In this document: piece by piece, positions 1 through 33,427 of the stretch
Layout of the letters: every line of letters begins with the position of its first letter
Position numbering within the stretch: position 1 is the stretch's first letter
Origin: Candidatus Heimdallarchaeum aukensis
Lineage (GTDB): Archaea > Asgardarchaeota > Heimdallarchaeia > Heimdallarchaeales > Heimdallarchaeaceae
DNA length: 64,000 nucleotides
Direction of reading: 5' to 3'
Assembly (NCBI GenBank): GCA_021513695.1
Contig: CP084166.1
Location: 864,001 to 928,000, forward strand
Position numbers and translations under genes: made by a program
The notes under the pieces: model-generated
The model's input: the letters and a program-made list of their open reading frames with translations, nothing else
Told to the model about the DNA's origin: nothing
Database searches by the model: none

Positions 1-1842
1 AAAATGTTCAGTTGAAAAGATGACAGAAGAAACTCTGCTTAAAGAACTAATAAAATATGAATCAGTAAAAATAGTAGAATATAATTCTATTATTGATGAA
101 TTTGCATAGCTAACAAAAAAAGAAAGATTCAGTTGTTGAATTATTGATCGAGCTTCATGTGAATCTGCTGGAAGAGAACTTAAAGTTTCTAGAATAATTC
201 TACCTGTCGAGAGATTACTAGAGAAAATGTATTGCTCCCACCACATATAAATTGGTCGTATTTTAGTTTTGTTCTCAATTGTAGATGCATTATAATAATC
301 TATTAGAAGTAAGGAAATACTATGTACATCTGCTAAATCATAACAACCAGCTAGAACAGATAGCCTTATTCCAGTTGCCCTATTACATGAGGCTATTAAA
401 CTTCCAGAAAAATTATTAAAGAACTTTGCTAGCTCTATCTCTTCTTCTGTTAATTCAGAGTTGTCAAATGGAGCATTTGTTCTAGTTCTATAATCTATTT
501 GCCAATTTAAATAATATCTGGAATGTACTAAAAGTTGAAGAACAATTAACAAAACTAATATTCGATACAAAGCCTTTTTTGATAAAATGAAATTCAATTT
601 TCCTTCAAATAGAACACCAACTGAAAAAACAAGATATGCAACTCCAAAAATTATGAAAATACTCAAATAGAATTTTATATCGCTAACATATAGGTCTAAT
701 AATAAAAAACTAAAGATTACAGAAAAAGATAAAAGGAAAAGGTAAGAGCATTTCTCAAATTTTAATATCATGTTATGTTTATAGAGAAAAACGTCTATAA
801 AATAAATTGCAAACAAAACAGGTAATAATGATAATATATATATAATATAATGATTTGAAATAAATAGAATCAGAGGAAGTTGTAAATAAGTTAATTTTTT
901 TATTCGTCTATTCAATAAAGGAGAGGTTATATTTTCATGACTAACATGTAGGAAGAAACCAAATAAAGCTAAAAGAGAAACGAAACCCCATCCATTGTAA
1001 ATAACAAAACCAAGTATGTAAAGAAAATAATTTACTAAGTCATTATTGGTATATAGTGTTTTGGAAACTCTTGTGATATTTACATATTGATTAAAAAAGA
1101 AACCAGAAAATATAAGTATCAATGCTGAAATTATAACAATATAAGAAAATTTATCATACATAAACTTTTGAACTCTTCCTTTATTTAATTTATACTTTGA
1201 ATTATTTTTAAGTAATTTTTCAATAATCAAAAAAAATCCAACTAAAAATAAAAGCAATGTGTATGCTGTACTCATTCTATGAAAAAGGGACATTAAAATA
1301 AATACCAATGTCGCTTTAAAATAAGATGAAAATTGCTTTTTTTCTACTGTTTTTAGCAAATGTATAAAAAATAGAGGAATTAGTGCAACAAATGGAAACC
1401 TTGCAGATGCTAAATTATAGCTGAAATAGATTATATATGGGATATTTATGAAAAGTAAGCTTCCGATTATTGATATTATTGGTTTTTCAAATATGAATTG
1501 AAAAAAAGTAAAAGAAGCATAAGCTGAAATAATTAACCATAAAATAACAAAAACATTAACAGCTAGAATTTCATTATGAAAGCATATTATATCTATAACT
1601 CCATATATAAATAAAGATCCTATGGGGTAAGGAGAAAATGGATAAGCTCCTAGTAAGCTGAAAGGATGAATAATTAACTTTGTTACATAGCTTGAAAAGA
1701 ATAATCTACTTTCCCAAATTAAATACCATGAATCGGTAAAAAGAGGACCTTTGTGTGTTGGAATTCTTAAAACATAAGAGATAATAATAATTATAACAAT
1801 AAATATTAATTTATTAAGATGTTTTCGTACAGTGAATTTCAT
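1..1842 (-). CDS. Large polytopic membrane protein, partial (runs off the window start); possibly a glycan-processing membrane protein (polymerase or GT-C-like)
   Basis: Hand translation of the minus strand from the ATG at ~1842 (MKFTVRKHLNKLIFIVIIIIISYV...) gives an uninterrupted hydrophobic, multi-TM protein of more than 600 aa with no stop before position 1. It is absent from the ORF track because it is truncated. Function is inferred only from context in the glycan locus. Confidence 0.45.
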   Translation of the reverse strand, partial: MKFTVRKHLNKLIFIVIIIIISYVLRIPTHKGPLFTDSWYLIWESRLFFSSYVTKLIIHPFSLLGAYPFSPYPIGSLFIYGVIDIICFHNEILAVNVFVILWLIISAYASFTFFQFIFEKPIISIIGSLLFINIPYIIYFSYNLASARFPFVALIPLFFIHLLKTVEKKQFSSYFKATLVFILMSLFHRMSTAYTLLLFLVGFFLIIEKLLKNNSKYKLNKGRVQKFMYDKFSYIVIISALILIFSGFFFNQYVNITRVSKTLYTNNDLVNYFLYILGFVIYNGWGFVSLLALFGFFLHVSHENITSPLLNRRIKKLTYLQLPLILFISNHYIIYILSLLPVLFAIYFIDVFLYKHNMILKFEKCSYLFLLSFSVIFSFLLLDLYVSDIKFYLSIFIIFGVAYLVFSVGVLFEGKLNFILSKKALYRILVLLIVLQLLVHSRYYLNWQIDYRTRTNAPFDNSELTEEEIELAKFFNNFSGSLIASCNRATGIRLSVLAGCYDLADVHSISLLLIDYYNASTIENKTKIRPIYMWWEQYIFSSNLSTGRIILETLSSLPADSHEARSIIQQLNLSFFVSYANSSIIELYSTIFTDSYFISSLSRVSSVIFSTEHF

Positions 1843-1961: not shown

Positions 1962-3155
1962 GTGAATGCTATGAACAATGTAAAGAAAAAATTACTAGTT
2001 ATTACCCATAGTTATAACAGTTTTATAAAATATCAAATTGAATCACTTTCCAAATATTTCTCTGATATTTATGTTCTCGTAAGATATAATCCAATAGCTC
2101 AAATAGCAAATTATTTTGCAATAGATTATCTTACACCATTTAAAAAAAGTACAAGAATTAATCTTCAGCAAGTACCAACAAATATCCACATTTTTGTAAC
2201 TCCTGTTTATTATCTACCTATAAAGATTTTTGGAAATTACCTAGCTAAATCACATTTTAGAGCTGTAAAAAGAGTAATCGATATAAATAAAATTCAATTT
2301 GATTTGATCCATTGTCATTTTACTTGGAGTTCAGGTTTTGTAGGAATGAAATTAAAAGAGGAATTCAATGTACCTTTAATTATTACTGCTCATGGATATG
2401 ATATTTATTCACTTCCCTTTAAAAACAATAAATGGATGAGGAGAATACAAAAAGTATTGAATAAAGCAGATAAAATAATCACAGTGAGCAAAAGTAACAT
2501 TGATTATATTGAAAAATTGGATGTAAAAACCGATGTAACTTTAATTCCCAATGGATTTTCTCCCGATATATTCTTCCCAATAGAAAAAGATCAAGCTAGA
2601 CGAAACTTGAATATTCCGCTAAATAAATATGTTATCGTATCAATTGGAAATCTAATTAAGAATAAAGGACACAAATTTCTTGTTGATGCAATTAACATTA
2701 TCAAGAAAACATCGGATCTAGATATTATCTGTTTTATTATAGGTGGAGGAATATTAAAGAAAAAGCTTAAGAAGCAAATAAAGAGATTGGGTCTTTCCGA
2801 TAATATTTTTCTTAAGGATTATAGACCTTATAGTGAAATTCCAATTTGGATGAATTCTGCAGATCTATTTGTATTACCAAGCATCCAAGAAAGTTTTGGT
2901 GTTGTTGTATTGGAATCTTTAGCATGTGGAACACCTGTAGTGGCAACAAGAAACGGAGGAAGTGAAGAAGTACTAACTTCTAAAGAACTTGGACTTTTAT
3001 GTGAAGTTGGTAATAGCAGTAATTTAGCGAAATATATTGAACAAGCACTTGAAAAAGATTGGGATAAAAAAAGATTAGTAAAGTATGCTGAAAAATTTTC
3101 TTGGGAAAAAATATCAGAAGATTTATTTTATATTTATCAAGAAGTGTTAGATTAG
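1962..3155 (+). CDS. GT4 (group 1) glycosyltransferase
   Basis: C-terminal EX7E region ESFGVVVLESLACGTPVVATRNGG is the classic GT-B/GT4 donor-binding motif. The N-terminal half is Rossmann-like. Confidence 0.85.
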   Translation: MNAMNNVKKKLLVITHSYNSFIKYQIESLSKYFSDIYVLVRYNPIAQIANYFAIDYLTPFKKSTRINLQQVPTNIHIFVTPVYYLPIKIFGNYLAKSHFRAVKRVIDINKIQFDLIHCHFTWSSGFVGMKLKEEFNVPLIITAHGYDIYSLPFKNNKWMRRIQKVLNKADKIITVSKSNIDYIEKLDVKTDVTLIPNGFSPDIFFPIEKDQARRNLNIPLNKYVIVSIGNLIKNKGHKFLVDAINIIKKTSDLDIICFIIGGGILKKKLKKQIKRLGLSDNIFLKDYRPYSEIPIWMNSADLFVLPSIQESFGVVVLESLACGTPVVATRNGGSEEVLTSKELGLLCEVGNSSNLAKYIEQALEKDWDKKRLVKYAEKFSWEKISEDLFYIYQEVLD

Positions 3156-4714
3156 ATGTCGTCTATATATCTTATTGAGTATTCTTTTTCTATTAAAAGC
3201 TTATACAATTCTATTAATCCAAATAGAAAAAGTGGAATACTTACAATTGTCCAAGTAATTATTAAGATTAAAAACTTAATTTTATATAAAAGTAATATGA
3301 ATATAAAAGACATATAGAGAATTAATATGAACAAATGAAAACCTGATTTACCTTTTGTAAAAAGAAGGAGAAGAATTTGTAGAAAAATATTGTTAAAAAA
3401 CCCTCCTATAGCTAAACCTAAAGCAAAACCAAACATTCCAAAATCTGGAACCAATAAAATCCAAGAAATTGCTACTATAATTGCTCTAATAAAAGCTAAA
3501 ATTGGTTGAATTATAACCTTTTGTTCAGATGAAGAAAAATAGGCAGAAGTAGGAGTACCTAATAAAGAATTTATCGCATTAATTAAGAAATATACAAAAA
3601 CACTCCAATTAACTAGCATATCGTATCTGAAAAATGATAGAATATCTAACCAGATTGGAAAAGATTTCACTAATATTAATGATATACCCAACATTGGAAG
3701 TAAAATTGAGGAAAAAGACCAATTTACTTTTCTTATAAACCTAAGAGCTAATCCAGAATTTGATTTTTGAATATTTGTGATTCTAGATAAAAGAAGAGAA
3801 CCAAGAGATATTGCAATTAGGTTTATTGGAGCCATAGCAGAATTCCAAAAACCCAGAACTCCCATTTCAAAAAAGTTAAGATATTTCTCTGAAATTATTA
3901 TTTGTATCTGTGATAAACCAAGACTAAAGAGACTTCCAGTTGCTACAATAATAGCATAACGAAGAATTTTTTTGGTTTTTTTGCTGATTCGAAATTTTTT
4001 AAATTTAAGTATTGATTTTATTATTTTAACAGAAAAAAGTAAACCAAATATCAGATGGTATATCAATATTGGAACTAATAAAATGTAAATTTTACCAAAA
4101 ATTTTCTCTTGAGGAGAAAATAAAAGAGATGTTACAGAAGCTGGTAAAAAAATTAAAAATGCAATTCCTTCATACTTAAGAAGCTTAATGAAATTTTCTT
4201 CACCTTGCAGTGATTTTCTGTATACATAGTGGATTATATTAGTAAACATTGTTATATATATAAAAAATATATCTAAAGCTGAAATATTGTAAAAAAGGCA
4301 AATAAATATCAATCCAACTAATGACAAAAAAGAATAGATTAAAGTTAGAATAATACCATCATCAACAATTTTTTCTATTTCCTTTATATTACTCGCAGCA
4401 ATAAATCTAGCAATAGAAGGGGCTATACCATTTGATATTGGAATGCTAAGGAGGATTACCCACGAAAATATAAATGAAAAAGCTCCCATAACATCTGCGC
4501 TAAAGACCAAACCAACTACTAAAGGATAAATAGTATTAACAACACCAAGAATTACCGTACTTAAAATTGAATATAATATATTATTTGCTAATACTGATTT
4601 GAACATATTCGCAAAACCCTTCTTTTTACACTTCAAGAAAAAGTTAAGTATATTAATTATTCGCTTTATTAGTATCTTAATATATTCATTTAAGAGAAAA
4701 ATAACATTGAGCAT
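3152..4714 (-). CDS. Polysaccharide/oligosaccharide flippase, MOP (Wzx-like) superfamily
   Basis: About 520 aa, 12-14 predicted TM helices, no soluble domains, located in the glycan cluster. Family assignment is by topology and context only. Confidence 0.5.
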   Translation of the reverse strand: MLNVIFLLNEYIKILIKRIINILNFFLKCKKKGFANMFKSVLANNILYSILSTVILGVVNTIYPLVVGLVFSADVMGAFSFIFSWVILLSIPISNGIAPSIARFIAASNIKEIEKIVDDGIILTLIYSFLSLVGLIFICLFYNISALDIFFIYITMFTNIIHYVYRKSLQGEENFIKLLKYEGIAFLIFLPASVTSLLFSPQEKIFGKIYILLVPILIYHLIFGLLFSVKIIKSILKFKKFRISKKTKKILRYAIIVATGSLFSLGLSQIQIIISEKYLNFFEMGVLGFWNSAMAPINLIAISLGSLLLSRITNIQKSNSGLALRFIRKVNWSFSSILLPMLGISLILVKSFPIWLDILSFFRYDMLVNWSVFVYFLINAINSLLGTPTSAYFSSSEQKVIIQPILAFIRAIIVAISWILLVPDFGMFGFALGLAIGGFFNNIFLQILLLLFTKGKSGFHLFILILYMSFIFILLLYKIKFLILIITWTIVSIPLFLFGLIELYKLLIEKEYSIRYIDDI

Positions 4715-4781: not shown

Positions 4782-6962
4782 ATGAAAAAATGGAAGCTTC
4801 TTTACTTCGTATCATTTGCATTTATTATATTTCTCTCAACATTATTAAATCCCCCTGATTACGTAAAACTAGCTGATAAGGAAAACTACAAAACAAAAAA
4901 TAATTTTACCGTAATAAAGTCTGAAAGTGACCCAATTTTCATTGACTCAGATGATGATTTTAGTTTAGCCTATAATTTTCCTGGGTCAGGAACAAAAGAA
5001 GATCCTTATCTCATTTCAAATCGCACTATAATAACTACTTCGGATTACGGAATCTATATTTTTAATGTATCTAAATTTTTTAAAATTCAAAATAATATAA
5101 TTAAATCCTCAAAATACTCAATATATATTGAATCAATTGCAAATAATTCAGGAACAATTTTGAATAATTCATGCGAAAATAATGCAATTGCTGGTATTTT
5201 TATAAAAAACTCAAAAAACATTGTTATTAGTAATAATAGTTGTAACTTTAATTATGAGGGAATATCTGTTATAGACTGCTATAATATTACATCAAGTTTT
5301 AATAATTGTTCATTTAATAGTTATGGAATAAAGTATAACAATTCTCCATTTTCAATAATTGAAAGTAATTTTTGTGATAACAATAGTATTTTTGGAATTG
5401 ATTGCAGATATGGTAATAAGTCACTCTTACTAAATAATCAAATGAATAATAATGCTTTCGGTCTTAGAATCGAGGAATCAGCAAATTGTAATGTAGCTTC
5501 TAATTCTATTAACAGTTCTACTAGAGCAGGAGCACTAATTTCGAAGAGTTACTATTGTGAATTTACCTACAATAATTTTACAGACAATATTGAATATGGA
5601 CTTATTTTTTCAAATTCTAAGATGAATAAGATCCATAGAAACAACTTCATCAATAATAGTAAAGAACAATCTTCTCAAGCTTTTGAAGATGATACAAATA
5701 TATGGTATGACATTGTTGCTTATAAAGGTAATTTTTGGTCAGATTATAAGGGAAAAGGCAACTATACAATCGGTGGACCAACCTTAAATTCAGATCCTTA
5801 TCCTATCTTAAATCCCACATTAGTTTATCATGATAATATCAAGATTTATTCTAACTCTCAATTTTATAAAAAATATCTGTTTCCTGGGTCAGGAACAAAA
5901 GAAGATCCTTTTATAATTGAAGATATTTTTATCTATACAAACTTTGGAATAGGAATTTATATTGGGGGGGTAAATGCATCGTTTATTATTAGAAATTGTA
6001 TTATATATTCTAGAGAATATGGTATTTACATTAACAAAGCTAGTTCAAGTAACAATGAAATAATAAACAACACCTGTAGAACTCAAAATCAGTATGGTAT
6101 ATTCATTGAAAATTCAGTAAACACCATAGTTGTAAATAATACTTGTTCTAATCAAAACCAATATTCTATATATTTGTATTATTCAGGTCATTCTTTTATT
6201 TCAAATAATACTTGCTCAAATTCAAAAATAGGTATTCAATTATATTATTCAGGAAACACAAGGATCGATAATAATCTTTGCATTTCAAATGAAGTCGGAA
6301 TTAGTTTATATGTGTCAAAAAATTGTACCATAGAAAATAACAATTGTTCTTATAATTCTTTTTCAGGGATTTATATTAGTACAACTCGCCAACTTTTTTC
6401 AGTACCAGCCATAATTATAAACAATTTTATTTATAATAATTCTTATTTTGGAATATATCTTTTTGAAGTAGATGGATCATTTATTGCTAATAATTCTATT
6501 ATTTTGAACGGCATGATTGGTATTTACTTGATTTTTTCAAAATATTGTATAATTACCTATAATAACTTTATAAATAATTTAGGATACGGACTTTCCTTAA
6601 TAGATGTAGAAAAAACAAAAATCCATCATAACAATTTTTTTCAAAATAATATCAATGGAACATCACAAGCATTTGATGATGGATGTAATAATGAGTGGTA
6701 TGACAAAGAACAACGAATTGGTAATTTCTGGTCTGACTTAAAAGATGACTTTTATGAAATTTCAGGGAATGCTAATGAGATTGATAAATATCCAGTAAAG
6801 AAACCATTCTTACCTCCTTACAATATAGAACCAATTTCGCTACTTCCAAATGATAAACTAAATACCAATGAAATTATTGTCTTTTTCATTGAAATATTTA
6901 CTTTAATTGCTATTCCTTCTTTCATATTTCTATTTAATAAAAGAATTATAAGAGGTAAATAA
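4782..6962 (+). CDS. Membrane-anchored surface protein with two right-handed parallel beta-helix (pectate-lyase/NosD-like) repeat domains, heavily sequon-decorated
   Basis: The ORF track starts at 4599, but a signal-peptide-like start MKKWKLLYFVSFAFIIFLSTLL at 4782 is preceded by agagaggg. The FPGSGTKEDP[YF] module appears twice, each followed by a long N/S/I-rich beta-helix repeat region. There is a C-terminal hydrophobic anchor plus KRIIRGK. More than 20 N-x-S/T sequons were counted by eye. Confidence 0.7.
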   Translation: MKKWKLLYFVSFAFIIFLSTLLNPPDYVKLADKENYKTKNNFTVIKSESDPIFIDSDDDFSLAYNFPGSGTKEDPYLISNRTIITTSDYGIYIFNVSKFFKIQNNIIKSSKYSIYIESIANNSGTILNNSCENNAIAGIFIKNSKNIVISNNSCNFNYEGISVIDCYNITSSFNNCSFNSYGIKYNNSPFSIIESNFCDNNSIFGIDCRYGNKSLLLNNQMNNNAFGLRIEESANCNVASNSINSSTRAGALISKSYYCEFTYNNFTDNIEYGLIFSNSKMNKIHRNNFINNSKEQSSQAFEDDTNIWYDIVAYKGNFWSDYKGKGNYTIGGPTLNSDPYPILNPTLVYHDNIKIYSNSQFYKKYLFPGSGTKEDPFIIEDIFIYTNFGIGIYIGGVNASFIIRNCIIYSREYGIYINKASSSNNEIINNTCRTQNQYGIFIENSVNTIVVNNTCSNQNQYSIYLYYSGHSFISNNTCSNSKIGIQLYYSGNTRIDNNLCISNEVGISLYVSKNCTIENNNCSYNSFSGIYISTTRQLFSVPAIIINNFIYNNSYFGIYLFEVDGSFIANNSIILNGMIGIYLIFSKYCIITYNNFINNLGYGLSLIDVEKTKIHHNNFFQNNINGTSQAFDDGCNNEWYDKEQRIGNFWSDLKDDFYEISGNANEIDKYPVKKPFLPPYNIEPISLLPNDKLNTNEIIVFFIEIFTLIAIPSFIFLFNKRIIRGK

Positions 6963-6964
6963 TA

Positions 6965-8923
6965 ATGAGATTCACTAGATTCATATACAAATTAAAAAAT
7001 TATGATATTGTATTTAGTACACTTTTTATCTTTGGAATAATTATCCAATGTCTATTTGTTTTATTTAACTGTAGTAAATTTTTTAGAGTGATTCTAGGTG
7101 TCATTATTTTTTATTTGCTTCCAGGTTATTTTTTATATTCACTTTTAGTACCAGAAAGAAAAGATGATAATGTTTTTTATTTTCTCCCTTTATTTTTTAT
7201 TATTTCATGTAGTTTTATTTCAATTATTGCAGTTTTCTATTCTACAACAAAAATAAAATTCAATATTGATTCATTTTTTGTAATTTATTTTGTTTTTATT
7301 TTGTTAATTATAAGTCTTGTATTTTTCCAATCTCTAAAAAATAATAAAAAAGTCCTTATTAGGTTCAAAGTTTCGCTAAAAAGTGAGAAAATATTAGATA
7401 CATTTTTTATTCTTGGAGTAATTTATTTTATTATATTCTTTTTATTCTTGACAATAAAAAATCCGTATTCTTTAGTTCCAGATGAGATAATGTTTGCGAA
7501 ATGGTCCTCTTATATGCTTAATAATCAAAAAATGCATCCACGTTTTACAGATTCTGCATCTGATATTATGATTATCTATCCCTATGGTTGGGTTTTTATT
7601 TTAGCAGTTTTAGAACTTTTGAGCGGAATAAAATCCATATACATTGTTATGTATGGTTCTATTTTCCTTAGTTTAATATTATTAATGTCGATCTTCGCAA
7701 TTTTTAAATCTAATCAAAATAAAGGCTTTTTTACTCTTATCGTTTTTACTACTTTAACTTTAGATGACTACATAAAACTACCAATAAGGCTAAGTTATAT
7801 GTTACCAGGAACTCTTGGTTTTATTTTTATATTGATTTTTTTTGCACACTGGAATTATGAATCAAAAGATGCTTTAAAACAAGTTTCTTACAGAAAATTA
7901 AGTTTCTTTTCTGTATTATATGGGTCTTTTTGGACAATTCATCATTTTACAAGTATTATTCTATTTCCATTAGTTGTCTTTTTAATATTTTACATTTTAA
8001 TTTTAAAAGAAAATGAAAGGCGCAGAGTTATTATGTATTTTTTTGGCCTTATGCTGCTAGTATTATTAGCTTCTCTTACATTTCTTTATAAATATATGCT
8101 TGTTTTAATAAAAGGAGGAAGTCTTACTATTGATATAATCGGAAATCCTGTATGGATTCCTATTAGTATTTTTGACTGGTTTGAAAAAAGTAGCTATTTA
8201 TTATATGGACTCCCATTTATAATTATCTTAGTCATCGGAACACTATTGGTATTTACAAATAAAAAATTTGATCAAATCTTACCTTTAATTTTTATATTAA
8301 CAATATTTACTTTCCGAATATTCACTTACTATATATATAGATCAAATACTTTATTTTATAGATTAGGAATATTCTTCAGTTTATCAATAGGTATCTTCAT
8401 CGCTAAAACTACAACATATCCAGAATTGATTTTAGATTTAAAAAAGTATAGCAAAAGAATACAGAAAATAGATCTTTCTTCAATTTTCATTATCGTTTTG
8501 TTATTATCTAATCTGTTAAATCCATTATTTTCTAAGAGTTTAGATGAAAATAGATACGATACATTTGCTTCTTTTATTTCAGAACACCCTTCTGTATATA
8601 AAGAATCAGATATAGAAATTGTTCTTTCAGTAGATATTGAAAATTGTGTGTTTATTGACTTTTACAATGTCACCCCCATTCAAGCTTTATTTGAAAATCT
8701 GTTGTTAGCTAAATGGGAAGGTACTAACTATTCTTATTATCGAATAGAAAAAGAGGTTACAATTAAAAGAATTCTTTTTTTTGTTGAATCAAACAAAACA
8801 AACTATATTTTCTTTTCTTCGGTAATGGATTTTGATCTTAAGCAAGAGCTTTTTATATCATTACAGATCTACGGATTTTCTATATACAAAATAATAGGGG
8901 AATCAATAATATTAATAAAATAA
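6965..8923 (+). CDS. GT-C fold membrane glycosyltransferase (PMT/ArnT-like, GT39/GT83-type)
   Basis: 652 aa polytopic protein. The first extracytoplasmic loop carries SLVPDEIMFAKWS, resembling the DE-x-hFgK loop-1 motif of dolichyl/undecaprenyl-phosphate-sugar-dependent GT-C enzymes. It lies immediately downstream of the sequon-rich beta-helix protein. Confidence 0.5.
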   Translation: MRFTRFIYKLKNYDIVFSTLFIFGIIIQCLFVLFNCSKFFRVILGVIIFYLLPGYFLYSLLVPERKDDNVFYFLPLFFIISCSFISIIAVFYSTTKIKFNIDSFFVIYFVFILLIISLVFFQSLKNNKKVLIRFKVSLKSEKILDTFFILGVIYFIIFFLFLTIKNPYSLVPDEIMFAKWSSYMLNNQKMHPRFTDSASDIMIIYPYGWVFILAVLELLSGIKSIYIVMYGSIFLSLILLMSIFAIFKSNQNKGFFTLIVFTTLTLDDYIKLPIRLSYMLPGTLGFIFILIFFAHWNYESKDALKQVSYRKLSFFSVLYGSFWTIHHFTSIILFPLVVFLIFYILILKENERRRVIMYFFGLMLLVLLASLTFLYKYMLVLIKGGSLTIDIIGNPVWIPISIFDWFEKSSYLLYGLPFIIILVIGTLLVFTNKKFDQILPLIFILTIFTFRIFTYYIYRSNTLFYRLGIFFSLSIGIFIAKTTTYPELILDLKKYSKRIQKIDLSSIFIIVLLLSNLLNPLFSKSLDENRYDTFASFISEHPSVYKESDIEIVLSVDIENCVFIDFYNVTPIQALFENLLLAKWEGTNYSYYRIEKEVTIKRILFFVESNKTNYIFFSSVMDFDLKQELFISLQIYGFSIYKIIGESIILIK

Positions 8924-8930
8924 AGGAGTA

Positions 8931-9434
8931 ATGTTAATGACATATAATCGTAAATTATCATCTCTGCGAAATTTTTTTCTTTCTATTAACCATGAAAGAT
9001 TTGTTAAAATCTGTAATATTATTCTCTTTTCTTTTGGAGTAATATTTGGAACAATTCTTAGAATGGATTACTTTGGCGGATGGAGTTTAGCAAATAATTT
9101 AGATACGCTAGTCTTCAAAAACTCTGTTCTTTATTCACTGCACCCTTTTAGAGTATTGTGGATTCTGCTTAGAGTTACAATAATGATATTATCATTTTCT
9201 TTTGCGATAATATTTTATTATCAAATGAAAAGGGATTGGATAAATTCAATTATTAATATCTTATCGTTTTTCATTGTCTCTTTATTAATGAGTATTTTTA
9301 TTATAATTTTTCGCCATATTAAAATAGATGCTAGTACACTTTTCACATATATCGGAATTTTTTTGGTAATAATAATTGCTATATTCAATCATTATTTTCC
9401 ATTTACTTCTCTATTTAACAAAACAAAAACTTAA
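8931..9434 (+). CDS. Small integral membrane protein, unknown function
   Basis: 167 aa, about 4 TM helices, translationally coupled downstream of the GT-C gene. Confidence 0.4.
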   Translation: MLMTYNRKLSSLRNFFLSINHERFVKICNIILFSFGVIFGTILRMDYFGGWSLANNLDTLVFKNSVLYSLHPFRVLWILLRVTIMILSFSFAIIFYYQMKRDWINSIINILSFFIVSLLMSIFIIIFRHIKIDASTLFTYIGIFLVIIIAIFNHYFPFTSLFNKTKT

Positions 9435-10847: not shown

Positions 10848-11852
10848 TCATCTAAATTTGACACTATCTACATTAGGCATCGAATCTGCTGAATAAATAG
10901 AATCCAACTCAAACAGAGAAAGTATATCAATTGCCCGTTCTAGTTGCTCTTTTGTAATATTTTCCTTCCATTTATCGATAATACTTCCACCGGATATTAA
11001 TGCACTTTCCTTTCTTACTTCGGGAGAAGGTTTCTTTAGAACTCTATAAATAGATTGATCATAATTTTTTCCTAAAAATTGGAATAATTTATCTATTTCT
11101 TCTTCAGGTGAAACAGCATATTTTTCATAAAAAGTTACAAGTATTTCATCTTTTGAAAACTGTTTTAGTGGGACATAATTCTCAATACACCATAAAAAGA
11201 TATTCTTCTCAAAAGTAGTCTGAGCATGTAAAATATCTTTCTTAAAGGGATTCAAGAAATCTTCCATTAGCTCTTCCTGAGAAAGTAAAACATCCAGATG
11301 GTCTTCCCAATTTAATTTTATTCTAGAGTTAGCCACTGCTCCGGGATGTCTTAGAAGTAAAATAATTTTTATTTCAGGAAACTGGGTTTTGATCCATTTT
11401 AGCATTAAATTAGCTCGGATATCTTTAACAAGCCTTTTTTTGCACAGAAACTTTTTATTAAATCTGTCTACCCATTTGTTTCTTATTTTTCCTGAAAGAA
11501 TTTTTCTTGCTGGTTCTAAATACTTTTCATCATTGTTCTCAGGTCTAAGATATTGCCTATACTTGAAATCTTTACAGACATCAACAAAGTATGAGTGAAA
11601 TGGCTCAAAAATGTACCTATAACTGTTATCATAATTAATGATATTTGAAACCCATGTTGTACCACTTCGTCCTGTTCCAGCTAGAAAAATGGTATTCTCA
11701 TAATTGCTATCTAAATTAATATATAATCTACTATGAATCTTGATTTTGATTGAATCAAGTAATGTTCCTTCATCGATTTTTCTTTTTATTTTATTTACTA
11801 TATTACTCATACAATCACTTTTTAGAATTAGATAAAACCCCATTTTTTCCAA
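10848..11852 (-). CDS. PAPS-dependent sulfotransferase
   Basis: 5-prime PSB loop AGTGRSGTTWVSNII and 3-prime PB-like LRHPGAVANSRI are characteristic of the sulfotransferase fold. Confidence 0.7.
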   Translation of the reverse strand: MEKMGFYLILKSDCMSNIVNKIKRKIDEGTLLDSIKIKIHSRLYINLDSNYENTIFLAGTGRSGTTWVSNIINYDNSYRYIFEPFHSYFVDVCKDFKYRQYLRPENNDEKYLEPARKILSGKIRNKWVDRFNKKFLCKKRLVKDIRANLMLKWIKTQFPEIKIILLLRHPGAVANSRIKLNWEDHLDVLLSQEELMEDFLNPFKKDILHAQTTFEKNIFLWCIENYVPLKQFSKDEILVTFYEKYAVSPEEEIDKLFQFLGKNYDQSIYRVLKKPSPEVRKESALISGGSIIDKWKENITKEQLERAIDILSLFELDSIYSADSMPNVDSVKFR

Positions 11853-15562: not shown

Positions 15563-17143
15563 TTGTATTCTGAAGAAAAAGGGAATCTATTAAAAAGAGG
15601 ATCAGGCTCTCACTTTGTAATCATTTTTTTCTTGTCGTTCGTTTTATCAAAACTATTCAGCATGGCCTTCAACAAGATTTTCACCAATGTGTTAACGAAA
15701 ACAGAGATGGGTAGATATGCCATTTTTATATCTGCAATTACCACAATTTTTACTTATTCAACACTGGGCTTCCCAGCGGCTTTAAATAGATTTACTGTAA
15801 CTTATAAAGAGAGAAAACAATTAGAAAATCTCAAGAATTTTCTTACTACAGGATTTATTATTTTCCTTGCAGCTGAACTGACGATAACTTCCATTCTAAT
15901 AATTCTATACTATACTACTGGTTTTACACCTAAATTTCTAAATATTGAACCTTACATCATAACTTTAATTATTGTAAGTCTAGTAGCAATAACACAGATA
16001 TTCAGTACAATGTGCTATGTTATCGCAAGTGCTTTACAGAATAGTAGATATTATGCAATAATAATGATCATGAGAGTTTTTTTACAGATACCCTTTGGAT
16101 TCTTGTTTGTAGTTTTCTTGAATTTAGGAGTATTTGGCTTAATCCTAGGCCTTCTACTTTCTGAATTCATTGTTGCATTATATAGTTTTTATTACTTGGT
16201 GAAAGATGTAGGAATTGGTAAATTTTCTTGGGAAGAGGGAAAGGCAATGCTATCCTTCTCAGTACCAGGTTACATAGCAGCCATTTTTATTAGTTCTTTT
16301 GATTTAGGTCTAAAAGTCTTTGTAGATTATGTTTTTCCTGCTGAAGGAAAAGAAATTATAGCCTTATACCAGTATGGTGCATTGGCAGTAGTAAATATTC
16401 TTTTAGTAGCTGGTAATTTATTTAGAGTTGTCTACAGGCCCATTATTTTCAAATACTTTGAACAAAAAAAGTACAGAGAAATTCAGACTCTTACAATCAC
16501 GATTTCAAAATTATTTACAATTACAATTGTTTTTTCTGCAATCTTTCTTTTTGCGTTCTCTCCACTCTTGATTCCATTTTTGACCAAGTCTTCTTATCTA
16601 TCTAGTATATCTGTAATTCCTATTCTAATGCTCTCGACTATTATAGGTTACTTAAGAACATTGATAACTTATGGACACACGTTATACTACAAGAATTATT
16701 GGAATGCTATAGCTGCAATAACTGCAATAATAATTTCAGCAATAATTGGTTATTTTATCATTCCTACTCTTGGATTGATAGGTTTAGGATTAGTTTATCT
16801 TTCACTTACGAGTATCCAATTCTTTATTTTATTCTTTGTCTCTCAACATTATTTCAAAGTAAAATTTGAAATTAAATTAATTATAAAGATTTTAGTTTTA
16901 TGCGGAGTTTCAATGGGAACAGGAATAATTTTTAATGTTACTATCTTTTCATTCTCTGAACACTCCTTAATTTACTCCTTTCTTCTAAGTTCATTTATTT
17001 ATATTATAGGCATCTTCCCTTTGAGACTCATAGGAAAAAAAGATATAGAATTCCTGAAGTCTGTAATAAAGACATATATCAATATTATTAAGTCCAAGAA
17101 TAGCTTAGAAAAAAAGAATTCAAAAAAAAAGAATAGACATTAA
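15563..17143 (+). CDS. Wzx-like oligosaccharide flippase (MOP superfamily polysaccharide biosynthesis protein)
   Basis: 526 aa with about 14 TM helices. The length and charge distribution are typical of Wzx/MurJ-type transporters. It is divergently arranged from wecC. Confidence 0.65.
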   Translation: MYSEEKGNLLKRGSGSHFVIIFFLSFVLSKLFSMAFNKIFTNVLTKTEMGRYAIFISAITTIFTYSTLGFPAALNRFTVTYKERKQLENLKNFLTTGFIIFLAAELTITSILIILYYTTGFTPKFLNIEPYIITLIIVSLVAITQIFSTMCYVIASALQNSRYYAIIMIMRVFLQIPFGFLFVVFLNLGVFGLILGLLLSEFIVALYSFYYLVKDVGIGKFSWEEGKAMLSFSVPGYIAAIFISSFDLGLKVFVDYVFPAEGKEIIALYQYGALAVVNILLVAGNLFRVVYRPIIFKYFEQKKYREIQTLTITISKLFTITIVFSAIFLFAFSPLLIPFLTKSSYLSSISVIPILMLSTIIGYLRTLITYGHTLYYKNYWNAIAAITAIIISAIIGYFIIPTLGLIGLGLVYLSLTSIQFFILFFVSQHYFKVKFEIKLIIKILVLCGVSMGTGIIFNVTIFSFSEHSLIYSFLLSSFIYIIGIFPLRLIGKKDIEFLKSVIKTYINIIKSKNSLEKKNSKKKNRH

Positions 17144-17156
17144 AGATGAAATATAA

Positions 17157-18155
17157 TCACATAAATACATTATAATCAAGAGACCTATTAAAAATATAGG
17201 TAAACAATTTCTCCTTTTTCACTGGTAAAAATCTTGATTTTCGAGGTTGTGAGAGAATTGGATAGTCATAATCATATAATATTTTTCTGAAATATTTAGT
17301 TATATAATATTTCTCAAGAGTATTGATTTCTTTCTTCCAAACTTCTAGATTATCTGCAGAGATACCTTGAAACTGTTTGTTGAGACTTGAATTTCCCAAC
17401 CACAACTTCCCTTTGATAGTTGGTTTAAGAAGAATAGGATCATATTTTACTCCAATGAAATCAGCTAATTCTTTCATAGATTTTTCAGGATTAGTCAAAA
17501 TATCTTCATATTTAATAACATGATAAGAATCAGGAAACAGCTCTAAATTACGATACATGTGGTAGAAAGAATTTTTCAGAGAAAGTAAAGGAACACTAAT
17601 TTTGGGATATTTTCCTTTATTCACAGCCTTTTGTAAATAACGTCTGTAACTAACCAGATTAGAATATGGATTGCGTAACACACGTATAAATTTGGCATCT
17701 GGAAAGAGTTTTTTCAATAAAGGTACAAATTCATCATGTTCTACAGATTTTTCTACAAAACGTTTCGTTTCTACGTAGTCTTCTTCATAAAAGGAAGCAT
17801 AAATTGCTTGGAAGTAAAGTTCAACAAGATCTTTAAAATCATCAACTTCTTTCTCAATTTTTTGATTGAATATAGAAAGGTTGAACATTCCTATTCTACT
17901 TGAAGAATCATGACTAAAATCTTGCTTTACAGTATTAATTTTTTTAATATGTTTCTTAAAATTGTCTTTTATTTCCTTAAATGAAAGATCTTGAGGGTAA
18001 GTCTTTCTCCCTCGATAATCAACCCATCGTCCAGATAATTGGAAAATGTGTGTTTCAAAAGGAATACTAAAAAGTTCAGGATGATTATCTAGTAATCTTA
18101 ATAGTAAAGTTGTACCACTCTTATGTGGACCTACAATGAAAATGGGATTATTCAT
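17157..18155 (-). CDS. PAPS-dependent sulfotransferase
   Basis: IVGPHKSGTTLLLRLL (5-prime PSB P-loop) and RVLRNPYSNLVSYRRY (3-prime PB) were read directly from the sequence. Confidence 0.7.
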   Translation of the reverse strand: MNNPIFIVGPHKSGTTLLLRLLDNHPELFSIPFETHIFQLSGRWVDYRGRKTYPQDLSFKEIKDNFKKHIKKINTVKQDFSHDSSSRIGMFNLSIFNQKIEKEVDDFKDLVELYFQAIYASFYEEDYVETKRFVEKSVEHDEFVPLLKKLFPDAKFIRVLRNPYSNLVSYRRYLQKAVNKGKYPKISVPLLSLKNSFYHMYRNLELFPDSYHVIKYEDILTNPEKSMKELADFIGVKYDPILLKPTIKGKLWLGNSSLNKQFQGISADNLEVWKKEINTLEKYYITKYFRKILYDYDYPILSQPRKSRFLPVKKEKLFTYIFNRSLDYNVFM

Positions 18156-19536: not shown

Positions 19537-21289
19537 TTAAGCAATTTTTTTTCTTGTTAGTATGACTAAAGTTACTAGTCCAATAATAGTAATAAAAAAT
19601 GGGAGAGAGATTGTTTTTGTAGAAGGGTGCTCACTTGGATCCAATGGATTATAACCTTTTTGAACTTCCTCACCATCCATCCAACCATCTGAATCAGTAT
19701 CTGAATTTAAAGGGTCAGTAAGGTAAATATTAACTTCTTCTCCGTCACTTAGTCCATCTGAATCAGTGTCTGAATTTAAAGGGTCAGTAAGGTAAATATT
19801 AACTTCTTCTCTGTCACTTAGTCCATCTGAATCAGTGTCATTGTTATTTGTTAGAGTTCCTATATATTGTTCATAAGCATTTGATAAACCATCATAGTCT
19901 GAATCAACATCATACAAGTTCTTAGTCCTTATGAACTTAGAAGATCCACTCATTCCTTCCCAATAAACATGTAGAGAACTTGAAGGAAAAGAAAAACAGT
20001 AGATATATTCAGTAGTATCACCTATAATAAGCTCCAAATGACCATCAGAATCAATATCACCAATAGAGGGAGAAGAATAAGCAAAAGGACCAAGAGTATA
20101 ACTCCACAATAAAGATCCATTATTACTCAAACAATATAAATTACTATCATGAGACCCAAAAATAATCTCAAAATATCCGTCTGCGTTAATATCTGCAACA
20201 GAAGGAGAAGAACGAACATTATCTCCTGTTTTGTAAGTCCATTTTATAGAACCATCATTGTTGAAACAGTACACATAATCAGAATCACTCCCCACAATAA
20301 TCTCAAAATAACCATCAGAATCTATATCTACGACAGCAGGAGAATCCCACACTCTATCTTCAGTATTGTATCGCCATTTTAAAGTACCATTATAATTTAA
20401 ACAATAGATGTAACCGTCATGGCTACCAATAATGATTTCTGATCTCCCGTCTGAATTAATATCTGCGATAGCTGGAGAAGAATAAATATCATTAGCAGTA
20501 CCGTATCGCCATTTTAAAGTACCATCATTGTTGAAACAATAAATGTAATTATCATAACTTCCGACAACAATTTCCAAGTCCCCATCAGCATCAATATCAC
20601 CGACTGAAGGTGAAGAAAGAACATTAAGACCAGTACCGTATCGCCATTTTAAAGTACCATCATTGTTTAAACAGTAGATATAATAGTCATCGCTACCAAT
20701 AATGATTTCTAAATTTCCGTCTCCGTCAATATCAAAAACAACTGGAGCAGTACGAACTTTTTCTCCTGCTTTATAAGTCCATTTTACAGTACCATCATTA
20801 TTCAAGCAGTATATGTAATTGTCATCACTTCCTACAACGATCTCCAAATTTCCGTCTTTATCAATATCTACAACTACAGGAGAAGAACGAGTGGATCCAC
20901 CTGTTTTGTAAGTCCATTTTACAGAACCATCATTGTTGAAACAATAGATGTAACTATCCAAACTCCCTTCAATGATCTCTACATTTCCATCGGCATCAAT
21001 ATCAACTATAGCAGGAGAAGAATGGATATCTCCCCCAGTTCTATAACTCCACAATAACTCAGCTTCAATACTCTTAAATGTTGAACCTTTGGGTGTTTCA
21101 AGATTAGTACTTGCATAAGAAAGAGAGTCAGTAGATAAAGAAGTTTCACCATTATAGTTTAAGGAAGTATTAAGTCTTCGATAATCAGTTTCATAATTTG
21201 ATGTTAACAAAGCAGGTGTTAACAAAATAATTAATAAAGCAACCGTGATAGTTAAACTTCTTATTCTTGAAATTTGCATTATTTTTTCT
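19537..21289 (-). CDS. Membrane-anchored secreted beta-propeller protein (9 FG-GAP/PQQ-like blades) with C-terminal TSP3-like Ca-binding repeats
   Basis: Nine repeats of the form DIDxDGxxEIxxGSxDxYIYC[FL]NNDGxxKWxYxTG. These are followed by D-rich DTDSDGLSDxEEVNIYLTDPLNS repeats and a C-terminal TM helix. The probable true start is the signal peptide MQISRIRSLTITVALLIILL (~21289), not the ORF-track start at 21450. Confidence 0.7.
19691..19840. repeat. Near-perfect 69-bp tandem duplication (2.2 copies) inside the beta-propeller gene, encoding the 23-aa DTDSDGLSDxEEVNIYLTDPLNS unit
   Basis: Units at ~19691-19759 and ~19760-19828 differ at 2 positions. A third partial unit follows. Confidence 0.8.
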
Positions 21290-22126
21290 CTAGTTTGAAA
21301 TATTTTTTGATTTTTAGCTTGCTTTTTTTTCATTATTAATTCATTCCTTTTTATTTTATGATTTTTCTGTTGCGATTTACTTGAATATTTAGAAACACTT
21401 CTTCTAAATCGTAATTTAGTAGCTGATTTTGCTCTCTGTCTAAATATCATCCATGAATTATCTTTTTGTTATCTTTTCCTACTCTATCAGTGGAATGGTA
21501 CAAACGATGAAATTTAAAGGTTTCAAAGTACTAACATCATCTAGGAATTATGAGACACTATTGAAGTATTTAACTCTTCGCTCAACGAGCAGCTATAATA
21601 TTCTGATTACTAGTGAATAGGTTGATTTAAGCATCTAGTTAAGGCACTTTTAGGAATGGTTTTTTTACATCTTTTCTCATTTCCAGTACCTCTTTTTGAA
21701 CATAGTTCGTTTCTTTTTTAGAGTAGATCACATAGTTATTACCAGAATCATATATAAACTAGACATTTTTTGAAGGAAGAAAATAACTGCAAAAAAGAAA
21801 CTCAAAGTTACATTCAGCCATTTTTTTAAATAAAATCACATTTCCCCAATATTCTAAAATCATTTTTACAACATTTTCAGGACTATGATACTTCATACAA
21901 TCACTTTAAAAAGATTTGAACTTGAATTTTTACAAAACTTAAAAAAATAGATTCATAACCGAATTTCAAGAGCTTCTGCAAAGATGCACTCTCATTAGCT
22001 ACATTTATTGTAAAGATGAAAGTAACTTAAAAACATTAACTATCATTTCTTTTTATTCCTACTATATGAATAAAACAATCAATTGTTAATAAGTAATATT
22101 TTTATTTTCTATCCTAATTTTAAATT

Positions 22127-31257: not shown

Positions 31258-33324
31258 TTGAAAATAACAATTTTATTAGCGATATATCTTATAACAATTC
31301 CAGGATTAGTAATTTATTTATGGTTCATTAGTTTGAATAAAAAAGTAGAATTTTTAAATTATGATATAAAAAAATTAAACTTTACAGATATTATGATTTT
31401 AATTATCTTTATTTCCATTTCTGAAATATCGTTATTAGTATATTTCCTCTTATTATTAAATTTAAAGTATGATAAAATAACTATAATTTTATTAATATTA
31501 CAGTTGATTATCGCATTCCCTTTAATTTTTTATATAAATAAAAAATCTGATTATAAAAAAGATTTCATCACCAAAATTAAGGAAAATATTTCTGTTTATT
31601 ATACTAAACAATTAATGTTAAATAGAAAAGCGATCCCTTTAATTTCTCTATTAATTATAGAATTGATATATGTTATTATAAAAATAAATTCATTCAGTGG
31701 TTTTTATTATAAATATTTAATTGATTTAGGTCCTTTTAATTACTTATCATGGTACTATTGGATAATTTTGTTTGCTCAAATATCCATTTGGATCTATTTC
31801 AACTTGAAGAATAACTTAGAGTGTATAAAGTATTCAGTAGTTTTGTCTTGTCTCATTTTCTTTCATGTATATATTTTCCCTGTTATTTATTACCAAAATA
31901 TGCGATACCTAGACGTATATTTTCATACAATGATTTCTATTTTAGAATTAAATACACAAAAAGTTCATGGATTTTATTTTGGATCTTATGATAAAAAACC
32001 TCTTTCTTACATCTTTTTTTCATTCATGCAATATACACTTCAAGTTAATTGGACTTTATTCTCAAAGATATACTTTATATTCTTAATGATACTTGTTTTA
32101 AAGTCTCTAAACATTATCGTAAGAATTGTATATAAAAGAAATAAAAGAAAGTTATTAAATGATAATAATAAATTAACATACGAAAAACATTATTTTCGTG
32201 TATTATCTTATTCAATACTAATTTTTTCATTAACTTGGATACAAGAATTTCATTTAAGCAGACAAAGCTTTTCTTTTTTATTTTTTTTAGCCTTTATAAT
32301 AATAATATTTACTACAAGAAGTGTAATCAAATATTTTTTAGTTTTCATAATACTTATTATAACATGTCTGTCTCATTTTGTTACACCAATTATAATCTGT
32401 ACAATTTTTATTATTAATGAAATTGTAGAACAATGGAAAAAATATCAGAATAAAGCAATTATAAAAAACTTATTAAGCAAAAAAAAGCATTTGTATTTTT
32501 TCACATTAATTTTTATATTGTTAATTTTTTCAGTATCTATTAGTTTTCATTTAATTAGTTTAAGAAATATATATAATAGTTTTTTAAATGCATTTATTGG
32601 AACTCAGCCTAGTACAGGTCATTTTATTGTCATCTCTGTGCGAATATTAGTGATTATAGTACAAATATCAATTTTTTTATACTCAATATTAAAGAAAGAA
32701 AAAAGTAGCGATAAGATTTTTATAGTAAAGTTTGTTATAATTTCACTAATCTCAATCCTTGGGCCACTTGGTTACTCATTAATATTCGTAGGAGGATATG
32801 TAATTTCTAGGTTCTTATTATTTATGTCTGTTTTTGTTTCTTCATCTATTGCGTATATACGAGTAAGTAAGAAAATAAATGTGATATTGCTTATATTTTT
32901 ATCAATTTCTACTATTATAGCACCCATAGCAAAATATGGTTCCGATTCTACTGAGATGATGTCAACTAAGGAAGAAGAGATATATGCGCTATTTATTAAC
33001 AAATACGAAAATGTTACTATTCATTGTTTTACTCCTTCAAAGATTTTTATCTCATATCTTTCAGCGCTTAAAAACAAATCAACTTATTATCAGATTTACG
33101 ACATAAAATTGCAGAATAAAGAAAGTTTTAATCCAAAGTTATTATTAAATTTTAGTTTATTTATAAACGACTTTATCTGTTTTTCTATTTCAGACTATCA
33201 TTTTATTGATATTAGGTACGGTTGGGGACAAGAATATTTGAATATATGGAAAATATATAATGAAACAAACTATTACATTATGGGGAATGAATATATTTCT
33301 TTTTATTTTATTGATAAAATATAA
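31258..33324 (+). CDS. Large polytopic membrane protein, unknown function (candidate glycan polymerase or ligase)
   Basis: 688 aa, more than 14 hydrophobic segments, no recognisable catalytic motif. Context only. Confidence 0.4.
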   Translation: MKITILLAIYLITIPGLVIYLWFISLNKKVEFLNYDIKKLNFTDIMILIIFISISEISLLVYFLLLLNLKYDKITIILLILQLIIAFPLIFYINKKSDYKKDFITKIKENISVYYTKQLMLNRKAIPLISLLIIELIYVIIKINSFSGFYYKYLIDLGPFNYLSWYYWIILFAQISIWIYFNLKNNLECIKYSVVLSCLIFFHVYIFPVIYYQNMRYLDVYFHTMISILELNTQKVHGFYFGSYDKKPLSYIFFSFMQYTLQVNWTLFSKIYFIFLMILVLKSLNIIVRIVYKRNKRKLLNDNNKLTYEKHYFRVLSYSILIFSLTWIQEFHLSRQSFSFLFFLAFIIIIFTTRSVIKYFLVFIILIITCLSHFVTPIIICTIFIINEIVEQWKKYQNKAIIKNLLSKKKHLYFFTLIFILLIFSVSISFHLISLRNIYNSFLNAFIGTQPSTGHFIVISVRILVIIVQISIFLYSILKKEKSSDKIFIVKFVIISLISILGPLGYSLIFVGGYVISRFLLFMSVFVSSSIAYIRVSKKINVILLIFLSISTIIAPIAKYGSDSTEMMSTKEEEIYALFINKYENVTIHCFTPSKIFISYLSALKNKSTYYQIYDIKLQNKESFNPKLLLNFSLFINDFICFSISDYHFIDIRYGWGQEYLNIWKIYNETNYYIMGNEYISFYFIDKI

Positions 33325-33427
33325 CATAAACAAAGTGTTTATTGGTTTAATTTCATATAATTTAGCCTTAGTTAATAACTTTCATCAACCCCCCAGATAT
33401 TAATTAAAGTAGATTCATATATCAAAT

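Follow-up and report, generated by a model that had tools for sequence, protein, structure and literature searches.

A tandem beta-helix surface protein and its near-orphan polytopic neighbour in a surface-glycan island of Candidatus Heimdallarchaeum aukensis

To our knowledge, the cell envelope of the Heimdallarchaeia has barely been characterised. Of all known archaea, they belong to those most closely related to eukaryotes (PMC8813620). In a 64,000-nucleotide (nt) stretch of contig CP084166.1 of Candidatus Heimdallarchaeum aukensis (positions 864,001 to 928,000; the whole stretch is called the window here), two adjacent genes at 4782-6962 and 6965-8923 raise the question of whether a surface protein and the enzyme that glycosylates it are encoded side by side. 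The original prediction took the product of gene 1 (P1) to be a heavily N-glycosylated surface-layer (S-layer) protein or adhesin, saturated with N-x-S/T sequons, and the product of gene 2 (P2) to be its dedicated transferase, a GT-C enzyme of the PMT/ArnT type. Our answer is mainly corrective and concerns the sequon richness of P1, the GT-C label of P2, the GenBank start of gene 2, and the GT-C-clan gene of this locus, which lies outside the interval. In the reading that we favour, tentatively and short of calling it probable, a surface beta-helix paralog, P1, is co-expressed with an orphan, probably outward-facing transferase or polymerase of lipid-linked glycan, P2, that serves the glycan made by the surrounding biosynthesis island.

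Gene 1 starts at ATG 4782, with GAGAGGG just upstream, and its product is 100% identical to P0004, a "right-handed parallel beta-helix repeat-containing protein" of Ca. H. aukensis. The gene and its parts, given in amino acids (aa) of the product, are as follows.

4782..6962, plus strand: gene 1, encoding P1, 726 aa, a tandem NosD/CASH right-handed beta-helix surface protein
4782..4850, plus strand: N-terminal segment of P1, MKKWK followed by LLYFVSFAFIIFLSTLL, basic then hydrophobic, with its hydropathy peak at aa 4-22
4929..5816, plus strand: module A of P1, aa ~50-345, opening with FPGSGTKEDPY and closing with GNFWSDY...DPYP
5817..6851, plus strand: module B of P1, aa ~346-690, delimited by the internal repeat and the rung register
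6858..6959, plus strand: C-terminal transmembrane (TM) anchor and basic tail of P1 (…IIVFFIEIFTLIAIPSFIFLFNKRIIRGK), hydropathy 2.56 at aa 698-716

The double beta-helix of the original prediction is borne out. Pfam NosD matches P1 at E 2.4e-52 (177.9 bits; cut-off 23.6) and Pfam Beta_helix at E 4.9e-48 (163.2 bits; cut-off 25.9), and eight para_beta_helix repeats are recognised by NCBIfam. The rungs are 22-23 residues long and are arranged in a tandem duplication of two ~300-aa modules, 37% identical to one another (E 2e-59), both of which open with FPGSGTKEDP[YF] and close with GNFWSD...D.YP. The hydrophobic signal predicted at the N-terminus (aa 4-22) would be either a Sec signal peptide or a signal anchor; when the sequence was read by eye, no obvious small-x-small cleavage site was seen there. 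At the other end, the predicted membrane anchor (aa 698-716), also part of the original description, is followed by the basic tail NKRIIRGK. P1 is thus supported as an outward-facing, membrane-anchored tandem NosD/CASH beta-helix.

What might such a protein do? The earlier alternative, that P1 is a glycan-binding or glycan-processing beta-helix, is consistent with its nearest structures. A profile of the P1 family finds NosD (7O0Y) at E 1.3e-21 and AlgG (4NK8) at E 2.2e-16 among solved structures, and further matches are to AlgG/AlgE mannuronan epimerases (2e-16 to 5e-5), a mannuronate lyase, fructotransferases and glycosidases. On these profile matches the family is assigned to the CASH carbohydrate-binding/processing superfamily. 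With NosD (PF05048; 7O0Y, the NosDFY complex) P1 has in common the right-handed parallel beta-helix with PbH1-type rungs, and the NosD C-terminal cap motif GNYWSDY aligns with P1 in module B; unlike NosD, P1 has two tandem modules and a C-terminal TM anchor of its own. The AlgG/AlgE epimerases and CASH lyases (4NK6, 4NK8, 2PYG, 7O79) share the CASH beta-helix with P1 (profile E 2e-16 to 1e-4), but P1 differs from AlgG/AlgE in being duplicated, membrane-anchored and devoid of DPHD. Enzymes of the AlgG/AlgE type are encoded in exopolysaccharide gene clusters and act outside the cytoplasm, and P1 likewise lies in such a cluster. We know of no activity for any Asgard member of the P1 family.

Two narrower identities were tried for P1 and rejected. 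DPHD is the defining catalytic motif of AlgG-type epimerases, and P1 was rejected as an AlgG-type mannuronan C5-epimerase on the finding that its sequence contains no DPHD-like string. As a canonical NosD, P1 reaches only 107.4 bits against TIGR04247 (NosD_copper_fam), for which the cut-off is 300, and no nosZ, nosF, nosY or nosL was found among the window open reading frames (ORFs) scanned with Pfam. His and Met are scarce in P1, with only 5 and 4, respectively, in the whole chain of 726 aa; a His-Met-Met copper-binding motif has been described for canonical NosD (PMC13452462). For NosD-like proteins that lack the canonical features, a role in adhesion at the cell surface has been proposed (PMC13452462).

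The family to which P1 belongs is large. It comprises 299 matches at E <= 1e-10, the named ones nearly all from Heimdallarchaeia or other Asgard archaea, and the best non-self match of P1 is only 38% identical. Of the P1 homologs in six genomic contexts, some belong to arrays of NosD-like paralogs and others have giant FG-GAP proteins, transposases or unrelated genes as neighbours; none of the six has a polytopic GT-C-like neighbour or a glycan cluster beside the homolog. The NosD-like family appears to expand in arrays, and such high paralogy is unusual for a single S-layer gene. We conclude that P1 is an unexceptional member of a surface-protein family that has expanded in Asgard archaea to several hundred paralogs, and we infer that it acts as a glycan-binding or glycan-decorated coat protein, which would lie on the outer face of the cell.

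Two of these contexts have features of their own. A 23-kb stretch of Ca. Heimdallarchaeum endolithica (CP084167.1, 618766-642146) contains six or more NosD-like paralogs, 845-1126 aa in length, interspersed with rve-type transposase genes. Giant FG-GAP proteins neighbour one P1 homolog, and the glycan island studied here also contains an FG-GAP gene.

19537-21450, minus strand: a 637-aa FG-GAP/beta-propeller protein with bacterial TSP3 repeats

We turn now to the sequons themselves. P1 contains 24, in line with the more than 20 originally counted; this is 3.3 per 100 aa, 5-6 times the ~0.5 of the other 41 window ORFs. The composition of P1 (15% Asn, 15% Ser+Thr) itself predicts 16.0 sequons; shuffled versions of the protein have 16.0 ± 3.4, and 1.4% of them reach 24 (p ~0.014). 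The observed/expected ratio is 1.5 for P1 vs 0.82 pooled over the other 41 ORFs. The surplus has a single source. Many sequons lie within the rungs, as had been noticed; they stand at fixed registers, chiefly as I-x-N-N-[S/T]-C. NN[ST] occurs 11 times against 2.5 expected, a count reached in 0 of 5000 shuffles, whereas all other sequons number 13 against 13.5 expected. Since the excess is all NN[ST] and the rest is at expectation, the sequon "saturation" of P1 is composition plus one family-wide turn motif, with no protein-wide enrichment. Indeed, across 119 family members NN[ST] is enriched 4.0-fold and NNT 7.9-fold, while non-NN[ST] sequons are depleted to 0.68; the observed/expected ratio has a family median of 1.15 and falls to 0.5-0.7 in the four nearest homologs of P1. 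Saturation as a sign of heavy N-glycosylation is therefore not upheld.

The turn motif itself may be read in two ways, as a structural trait of the subfamily or as a selected ladder of sequons. At the aligned turns, bacterial NosD (7O0Y) and AlgG (4NK8) retain the second Asn but neither the N nor the T that flank it, so the sequon ladder may have been selected. Within the Asgard family, the odds ratio for finding N at -1 together with S/T at +1 is 8, a value confounded by rung classes and rung duplication. A plasmid tblastn for a bacterial control set gave no usable matches for NN[ST], and the bacterial comparison draws on the PDB alignments of NosD and AlgG only.

A second sequon-rich product occurs far from P1 in the window.

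59467-60027, plus strand: a 186-aa protein with 5 sequons vs 1.4 expected (3.7-fold)

This protein has sub-threshold kinase-like Pfam matches (AAA_18, cytidylate kinase) and no export sign was noticed in it, so such an excess can arise without glycosylation.

The second gene required a new gene model before its product could be compared with anything. Its features, and the GenBank start that we would replace, are these.

6965..8923, plus strand: gene 2, encoding P2, 652 aa, a near-orphan polytopic membrane protein; GenBank K9W45_03570, annotated from M184
7007..7327, plus strand: N-terminal four-TM module of P2, weakly DUF1616-like, with a conserved LPGYF
7475..7504, plus strand: VPDEIMFAKW, aa 171-180 of P2, in a predicted extracytoplasmic loop past TM5
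7514..7516, plus strand: M184, the GenBank start codon of K9W45_03570 (469-aa product)
8531..8920, plus strand: C-terminal ~130-aa soluble domain of P2, predicted extracytoplasmic, with sequons at aa 568, 588 and 610

As originally noted, gene 2 follows gene 1 directly. Its start at ATG 6965 lies 8 nt past a Shine-Dalgarno-like AAGAGGT. Residues 184-652 of P2 are 100% identical to the hypothetical protein K9W45_03570 (P0001), on a 3.08-Mb contig. The sole relative, P0002, is a truncated protein of 358 aa, encoded on a 1.8-kb JGI metagenome contig with 29% G+C; it aligns to P2 aa 3-344 at 32% identity (E 1.7e-37). Because the N-terminal 183 residues of P2 are conserved in P0002, and given the Shine-Dalgarno-like motif at 6965, the GenBank start is probably wrong, lying 183 codons too far downstream, and the coding sequence would include 6965-7513. 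The point matters because VPDEIMFAKW, the motif on which the GT-C label was founded, is upstream of the annotated start.

Searches for other relatives of P2 had little to offer. Searched exhaustively with phmmer, 1.84 billion representatives yielded P2 itself and P0002 and nothing else, and a word-index search found none beyond P2 itself. Back-translated pattern scans of genome and metagenome contigs yielded no confirmed relative, tblastn against plasmids gave chance matches only, and neither NCBIfam nor PDB sequence and profile searches returned anything at E <= 10. The C-terminal domain has no family match. At the N-terminus, Pfam DUF1616 (PF07760) aligns with aa 22-118 at E 0.005 (16.5 bits vs a cut-off of 31.6), a combined P2 and P0002 profile retrieves the DUF1616 protein P0003 (E 5e-3 database-wide), and DUF6541 matches the same stretch weakly in both P2 (E 0.045) and P0002 (E 0.09). 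P2 resembles DUF1616 proteins in having an N-terminal four-TM region with an LPGY motif; unlike them, it stays below the Pfam cut-off and covers only the first ~110 of 307 profile positions. A literature search on DUF6541, PF20176 and PF07760 found nothing. HVO_2173 of Haloferax volcanii is a DUF1616 protein and an AglB-dependent glycoprotein (PMC8241124).

Hydropathy gives P2 ~15 TM segments, with the N-terminus predicted inside and the C-terminus outside. This orientation agrees with a positive-inside tally, in which K+R make up 29 of 102 residues in short inside loops vs 15 of 122 in outside loops; all four loops that are strongly basic (aa 122-145, 348-354, 431-437 and 481-503) come to lie on the inside. 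Predicted to face outward are the loop at aa 165-204 with P-D-E, R275, H326 and the C-terminal domain of 130 residues. P0002 has P172-D173-E174 and F177 unchanged, and residues shared by the two proteins cluster in PDE, YPYGW, RLxYxLPxTxG and FWxIH. The conserved charged residues D173, E174, R275 and H326 are all predicted at the outer membrane face, and from conserved polar residues placed along the outer interface we would expect P2 to be an outward-facing enzyme. The "loop-1 DE motif" of the original prediction is accordingly right in part: VPDEIMFAKW is present, its PDE is conserved and it is predicted to face outward, but it follows TM5 and not the first TM helix, as would result from an extra DUF1616-like four-TM module in front.

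Does this make P2 a member of the GT-C clan? Two other polytopic proteins of the island bear on the question.

1..1842, minus strand: a polytopic protein, 614 aa or longer, that ends in a soluble domain and extends past the left window edge
31258..33324, plus strand: a further orphan polytopic protein (688 aa) with 7 sequons and, again, a soluble C-terminal domain

The first matches Pfam PTPS_related (PF10131) at E 1.4e-7 (30.8 bits vs a cut-off of 26.4), a family assigned to clan CL0111 GT-C (PMC7801869). It is the sole Pfam-supported GT-C-clan gene of the island, and it lies outside 4782-8923. The second has no Pfam or NCBIfam match, shares the build of P2 and adjoins a flippase candidate (33428-34687). 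Neither has significant similarity to P2. With two other polytopic proteins in the island that end in soluble domains, one of them in the GT-C clan, it becomes more likely a priori that P2 transfers or polymerises glycan on the outer face. In O-antigen and capsule loci, moreover, a membrane polymerase or transferase is the least conserved gene of variable surface-glycan clusters.

P2 was compared with a home-made GT39/ArnT profile of 12 sequences (E. coli ArnT and plasmid-borne relatives). By BLASTP, hhalign and HMMER alike, the best local alignment sets a P2 TM helix and its PDE on ArnT TM1 and its PDE, although none of these alignments is significant; the HMMER domain E-values of 0.016-0.057 are for a search space of one. 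Read by eye, loop 1 is PDETRYAEISREML...KPIAGYW in ArnT and PDEIMFAKWSSYML...YPYGW in P2, with a similar spacing that can be written PDE..[YF]A.....ML ... P..W. The best hhalign local alignment of the 31258-33324 protein also falls on ArnT loop 1 (columns 31-79) and is not significant. Like the GT39/GT83 enzymes (PMT, ArnT), P2 is polytopic and has a C-terminal extracytoplasmic domain and a P-D-E straight after a TM helix at the predicted outer face; unlike theirs, its PDE lies past TM5 rather than TM1.

Several results weigh against the reading that we favour. Up to E 10, neither P2 nor P0002 nor any sub-fragment is matched by the Pfam models PMT, PMT_2, STT3 and Wzy or by the other GT-C models. 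The hhalign score of P2 against the GT39/ArnT profile is 19.0 (E 0.21), no better than the 18.4 of the reversed query or the 18.1 of an unrelated TauE permease, and 7% of shuffled P2 sequences match a hidden Markov model (HMM) of loop 1 alone equally well. AlphaFold2 predicts P2 at a confidence (pLDDT) of 40.5 from the single sequence and 35.3 from a two-sequence alignment, and the only weak family matches of P2, DUF1616 and DUF6541, are domains of unknown function. As for P1, its homologs do not usually belong to glycan clusters, and P1 may have come to lie in this one incidentally rather than for a function. With the low-confidence P2 model, Foldseek found no structure at E <= 0.001. The profile test has little power, since the protein at 1-1842, a GT-C-clan member by Pfam, scores 15.2, also noise, against the same GT39/ArnT profile. 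The GT-C assignment of P2 is thus plausible but unproven.

The sequons of P1 can be set against this directly. N-x-S/T sequons are glycosylated by AglB/STT3, whereas PMT-type enzymes O-mannosylate Ser/Thr and ArnT modifies lipid A. P2 is like AglB/STT3 in its polytopic membrane part and C-terminal outside domain, but AglB/STT3 identity was rejected for it on the finding that Pfam STT3 does not match and that neither W[WYF]D.G nor WWD occurs in the sequence. Lacking both the STT3 match and WWDxG, P2 is not of the enzyme class that glycosylates sequons.

How firmly are the two genes joined? A third gene continues the series.

8931..9434, plus strand: gene 3, encoding P3, 167 aa, a small membrane protein with ~four hydrophobic segments (by eye) and no family

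Genes 1, 2 and 3 are on the same strand, with gaps of only 2 nt and 7 nt, and these gaps together with the ribosome-binding-like motifs suggest that 4782-9434 is co-expressed. An AGGAG (within 8924-8939) lies 2 nt before ATG 8931 and 8 nt before ATG 8937; with the latter spacing, gene 3 may really start at ATG 8937, two codons later than the longest ORF. Conservation gives no such picture: none of the six contexts of gene 1 homologs (0 of 6) has such a polytopic neighbour, and no frame of the 394 nt upstream of P0002 is coding, which leaves no gene-1-like neighbour there. The bacterial plasmid loci retrieved for the GT39 relatives are three-part, with a GT2, a GtrA-family protein and a GT39; P3 has no GtrA match.

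The surroundings of the pair are rich in glycan genes. By Pfam scans, a glycan-biosynthesis island occupies roughly the first 51 kb of the window (G+C ~27%; no Rfam match anywhere in it). Its enzymes include several GT4 and GT4-like proteins and two GT2, and its sugar-nucleotide genes encode RmlA, RmlB, RmlC, RmlD, a UDP-GlcNAc 2-epimerase (WecB-like) and a UDP-sugar dehydrogenase (WecC-like), with SDR epimerases and a DegT aminotransferase besides. Export would fall to three Polysacc_synt (Wzx/MOP-like) flippase candidates, and three genes have sulfotransferase domains.

3152..4714, minus strand: Wzx/MOP-type flippase candidate (Polysacc_synt, PF01943, E 5e-7, 29.9 bits vs a cut-off of 28.2)
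15563-17143: Polysacc_synt flippase candidate, scoring just under the Pfam cut-off
33428-34687, minus strand: Polysacc_synt flippase candidate, scoring just under the Pfam cut-off
10848-11852, minus strand: sulfotransferase-domain gene
17157-18155, minus strand: sulfotransferase-domain gene
28774-29658, minus strand: sulfotransferase-domain gene

Taken together, the sulfotransferases, RmlABCD, the UDP-GlcNAc 2-epimerase and the UDP-sugar dehydrogenase suggest a sulfated, acidic, rhamnose-containing surface glycan. Genes 1 and 2 are flanked by the first flippase candidate, divergent from gene 1 with 67 bp to its start, and by a convergent GT4-like gene. With P1 and P2 both inside a glycan-biosynthesis island, a glycan-related role for the pair is reasonable.

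Mobile and restriction genes are also found in or flanking the island.

22127-24004: methylase of the Eco57I type, with a TaqI_C domain
40376-41320: DDE transposase
43326-44024: rve integrase
57666-59126: TnpB/Cas12f-like gene

They are consistent with a variable locus rich in mobile elements.

In the favoured reading, then, the GT4 and GT2 enzymes of the island would build a glycan, the adjacent Wzx-like flippase would export it and P2, facing outward, would act on the exported product as a transferase or polymerase that works with a lipid-linked sugar and is GT-C-like in a broad sense; P1 would be bound to or decorated with glycan on the outer face, and if it is N-glycosylated at all, this would be the work of a general AglB/STT3 enzyme and not of P2. 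The functional coupling of P1 and P2, the enzymatic activity of P2 and the co-transcription of their genes are what we infer from sequence, spacing and surroundings. We consider it quite unlikely that the original pairing is correct, with P1 an S-layer or adhesin substrate under heavy N-glycosylation and P2 its own PMT/ArnT-like transferase. The 24 sequons on an exported P1, the 2-nt gap and a conserved, predictedly outward PDE do speak for it, as do the 4-fold enrichment of N-N-[S/T] in an Asgard family whose bacterial NosD/AlgG counterparts keep the second Asn only and the odds ratio of 8 for the flanking positions; that ratio, however, is confounded as described above, the non-turn sequons are at expectation in P1 (13 vs 13.5) and depleted in the family (0.68), and the nearest homologs fall to 0.5-0.7. 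Moreover, the enzyme does not suit the substrate: sequons are served by AglB/STT3, P2 has neither the STT3 match nor WWDxG, its PMT/ArnT membership is not significant, and the pairing is missing from all six homolog contexts and from the P0002 locus. STT3, OST3 and ribophorin have been reported for Asgard genomes (PMC8813620), which likewise counts against P2 as the sequon enzyme. A bolder form of the idea seems to us a long shot: P2 and P0002 would represent an unrecognised and extremely divergent archaeal family of outward-facing lipid-linked-sugar transferases, with a DUF1616-like module fused before a GT-C-like core, and together with an N-N-T "sequon ladder" along one edge of the P1 beta-helix they would form a dedicated surface-coat glycosylation module of the Heimdallarchaeia. 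If true, it would give the first functional lead for DUF1616.

A module of the Wzx/Wzy type is unlikely as well, if less so. Here P2 would be the Wzy-like repeat-unit polymerase or a WaaL-like ligase of a heteropolysaccharide, and P1 would either set chain length or, like AlgG, process the glycan on the periplasmic side by epimerisation, cleavage as a lyase or trimming of chains. Like Wzy/WaaL proteins, P2 is an orphan-like polytopic protein in a variable glycan island near a Wzx-type flippase candidate (3152-4714, one gene away), and a second pairing of flippase and orphan polytopic protein is found at 31258-34687; Wzy proteins are notorious sequence orphans, the conserved and predicted outward R275 and H326 recall the loops of WaaL/Wzy, and the P1-family profile does match AlgG/AlgE epimerases and a mannuronate lyase. 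P2 differs from these proteins in giving no match at E <= 10 to Wzy_C, O-ag_pol_Wzy or EpsG, weak evidence in families as divergent as Wzy/WaaL, in being larger than a typical Wzy of 380-480 aa and in its C-terminal soluble domain, while P1 lacks the DPHD epimerase motif and has its paralogs mostly outside glycan clusters. Nor do we put much trust in chance adjacency, by which P1 would be one copy of a mobile, expanding surface family dropped into a variable island and P2 a non-glycan membrane protein or a decaying gene. It would account for the DDE transposase, rve integrase, TnpB-like and restriction-modification genes of the island, for NosD-like paralogs beside transposases elsewhere and for a P2 that has one truncated 358-aa relative and no family. 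But the P2 ORF is intact over 652 aa, its 32% identity to that relative preserves the polar residues, its predicted topology obeys the positive-inside rule, the genes are tightly spaced with ribosome-binding motifs, and glycan genes stand on both flanks. The original picture of a substrate with its dedicated transferase is thus replaced by the tentative one of a coat paralog beside an orphan glycan enzyme. If NosD-like paralogs are the main coat and the orphan polytopic proteins of the island are outward glycan transferases, the locus would be a starting point for studying the assembly of a sulfated glycan containing rhamnose and N-acetylmannosaminuronic acid (ManNAcA).

One further observation concerns the island's own sugar genes. 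At 37533-38364, two overlapping open frames lie in different phases on the minus strand, within a 1.9-kb stretch without long ORFs, and the upstream frame carries a Rossmann-like VLITGTLGFVGSSLVEKIL motif; the arrangement looks like a frameshifted SDR epimerase/dehydratase pseudogene.

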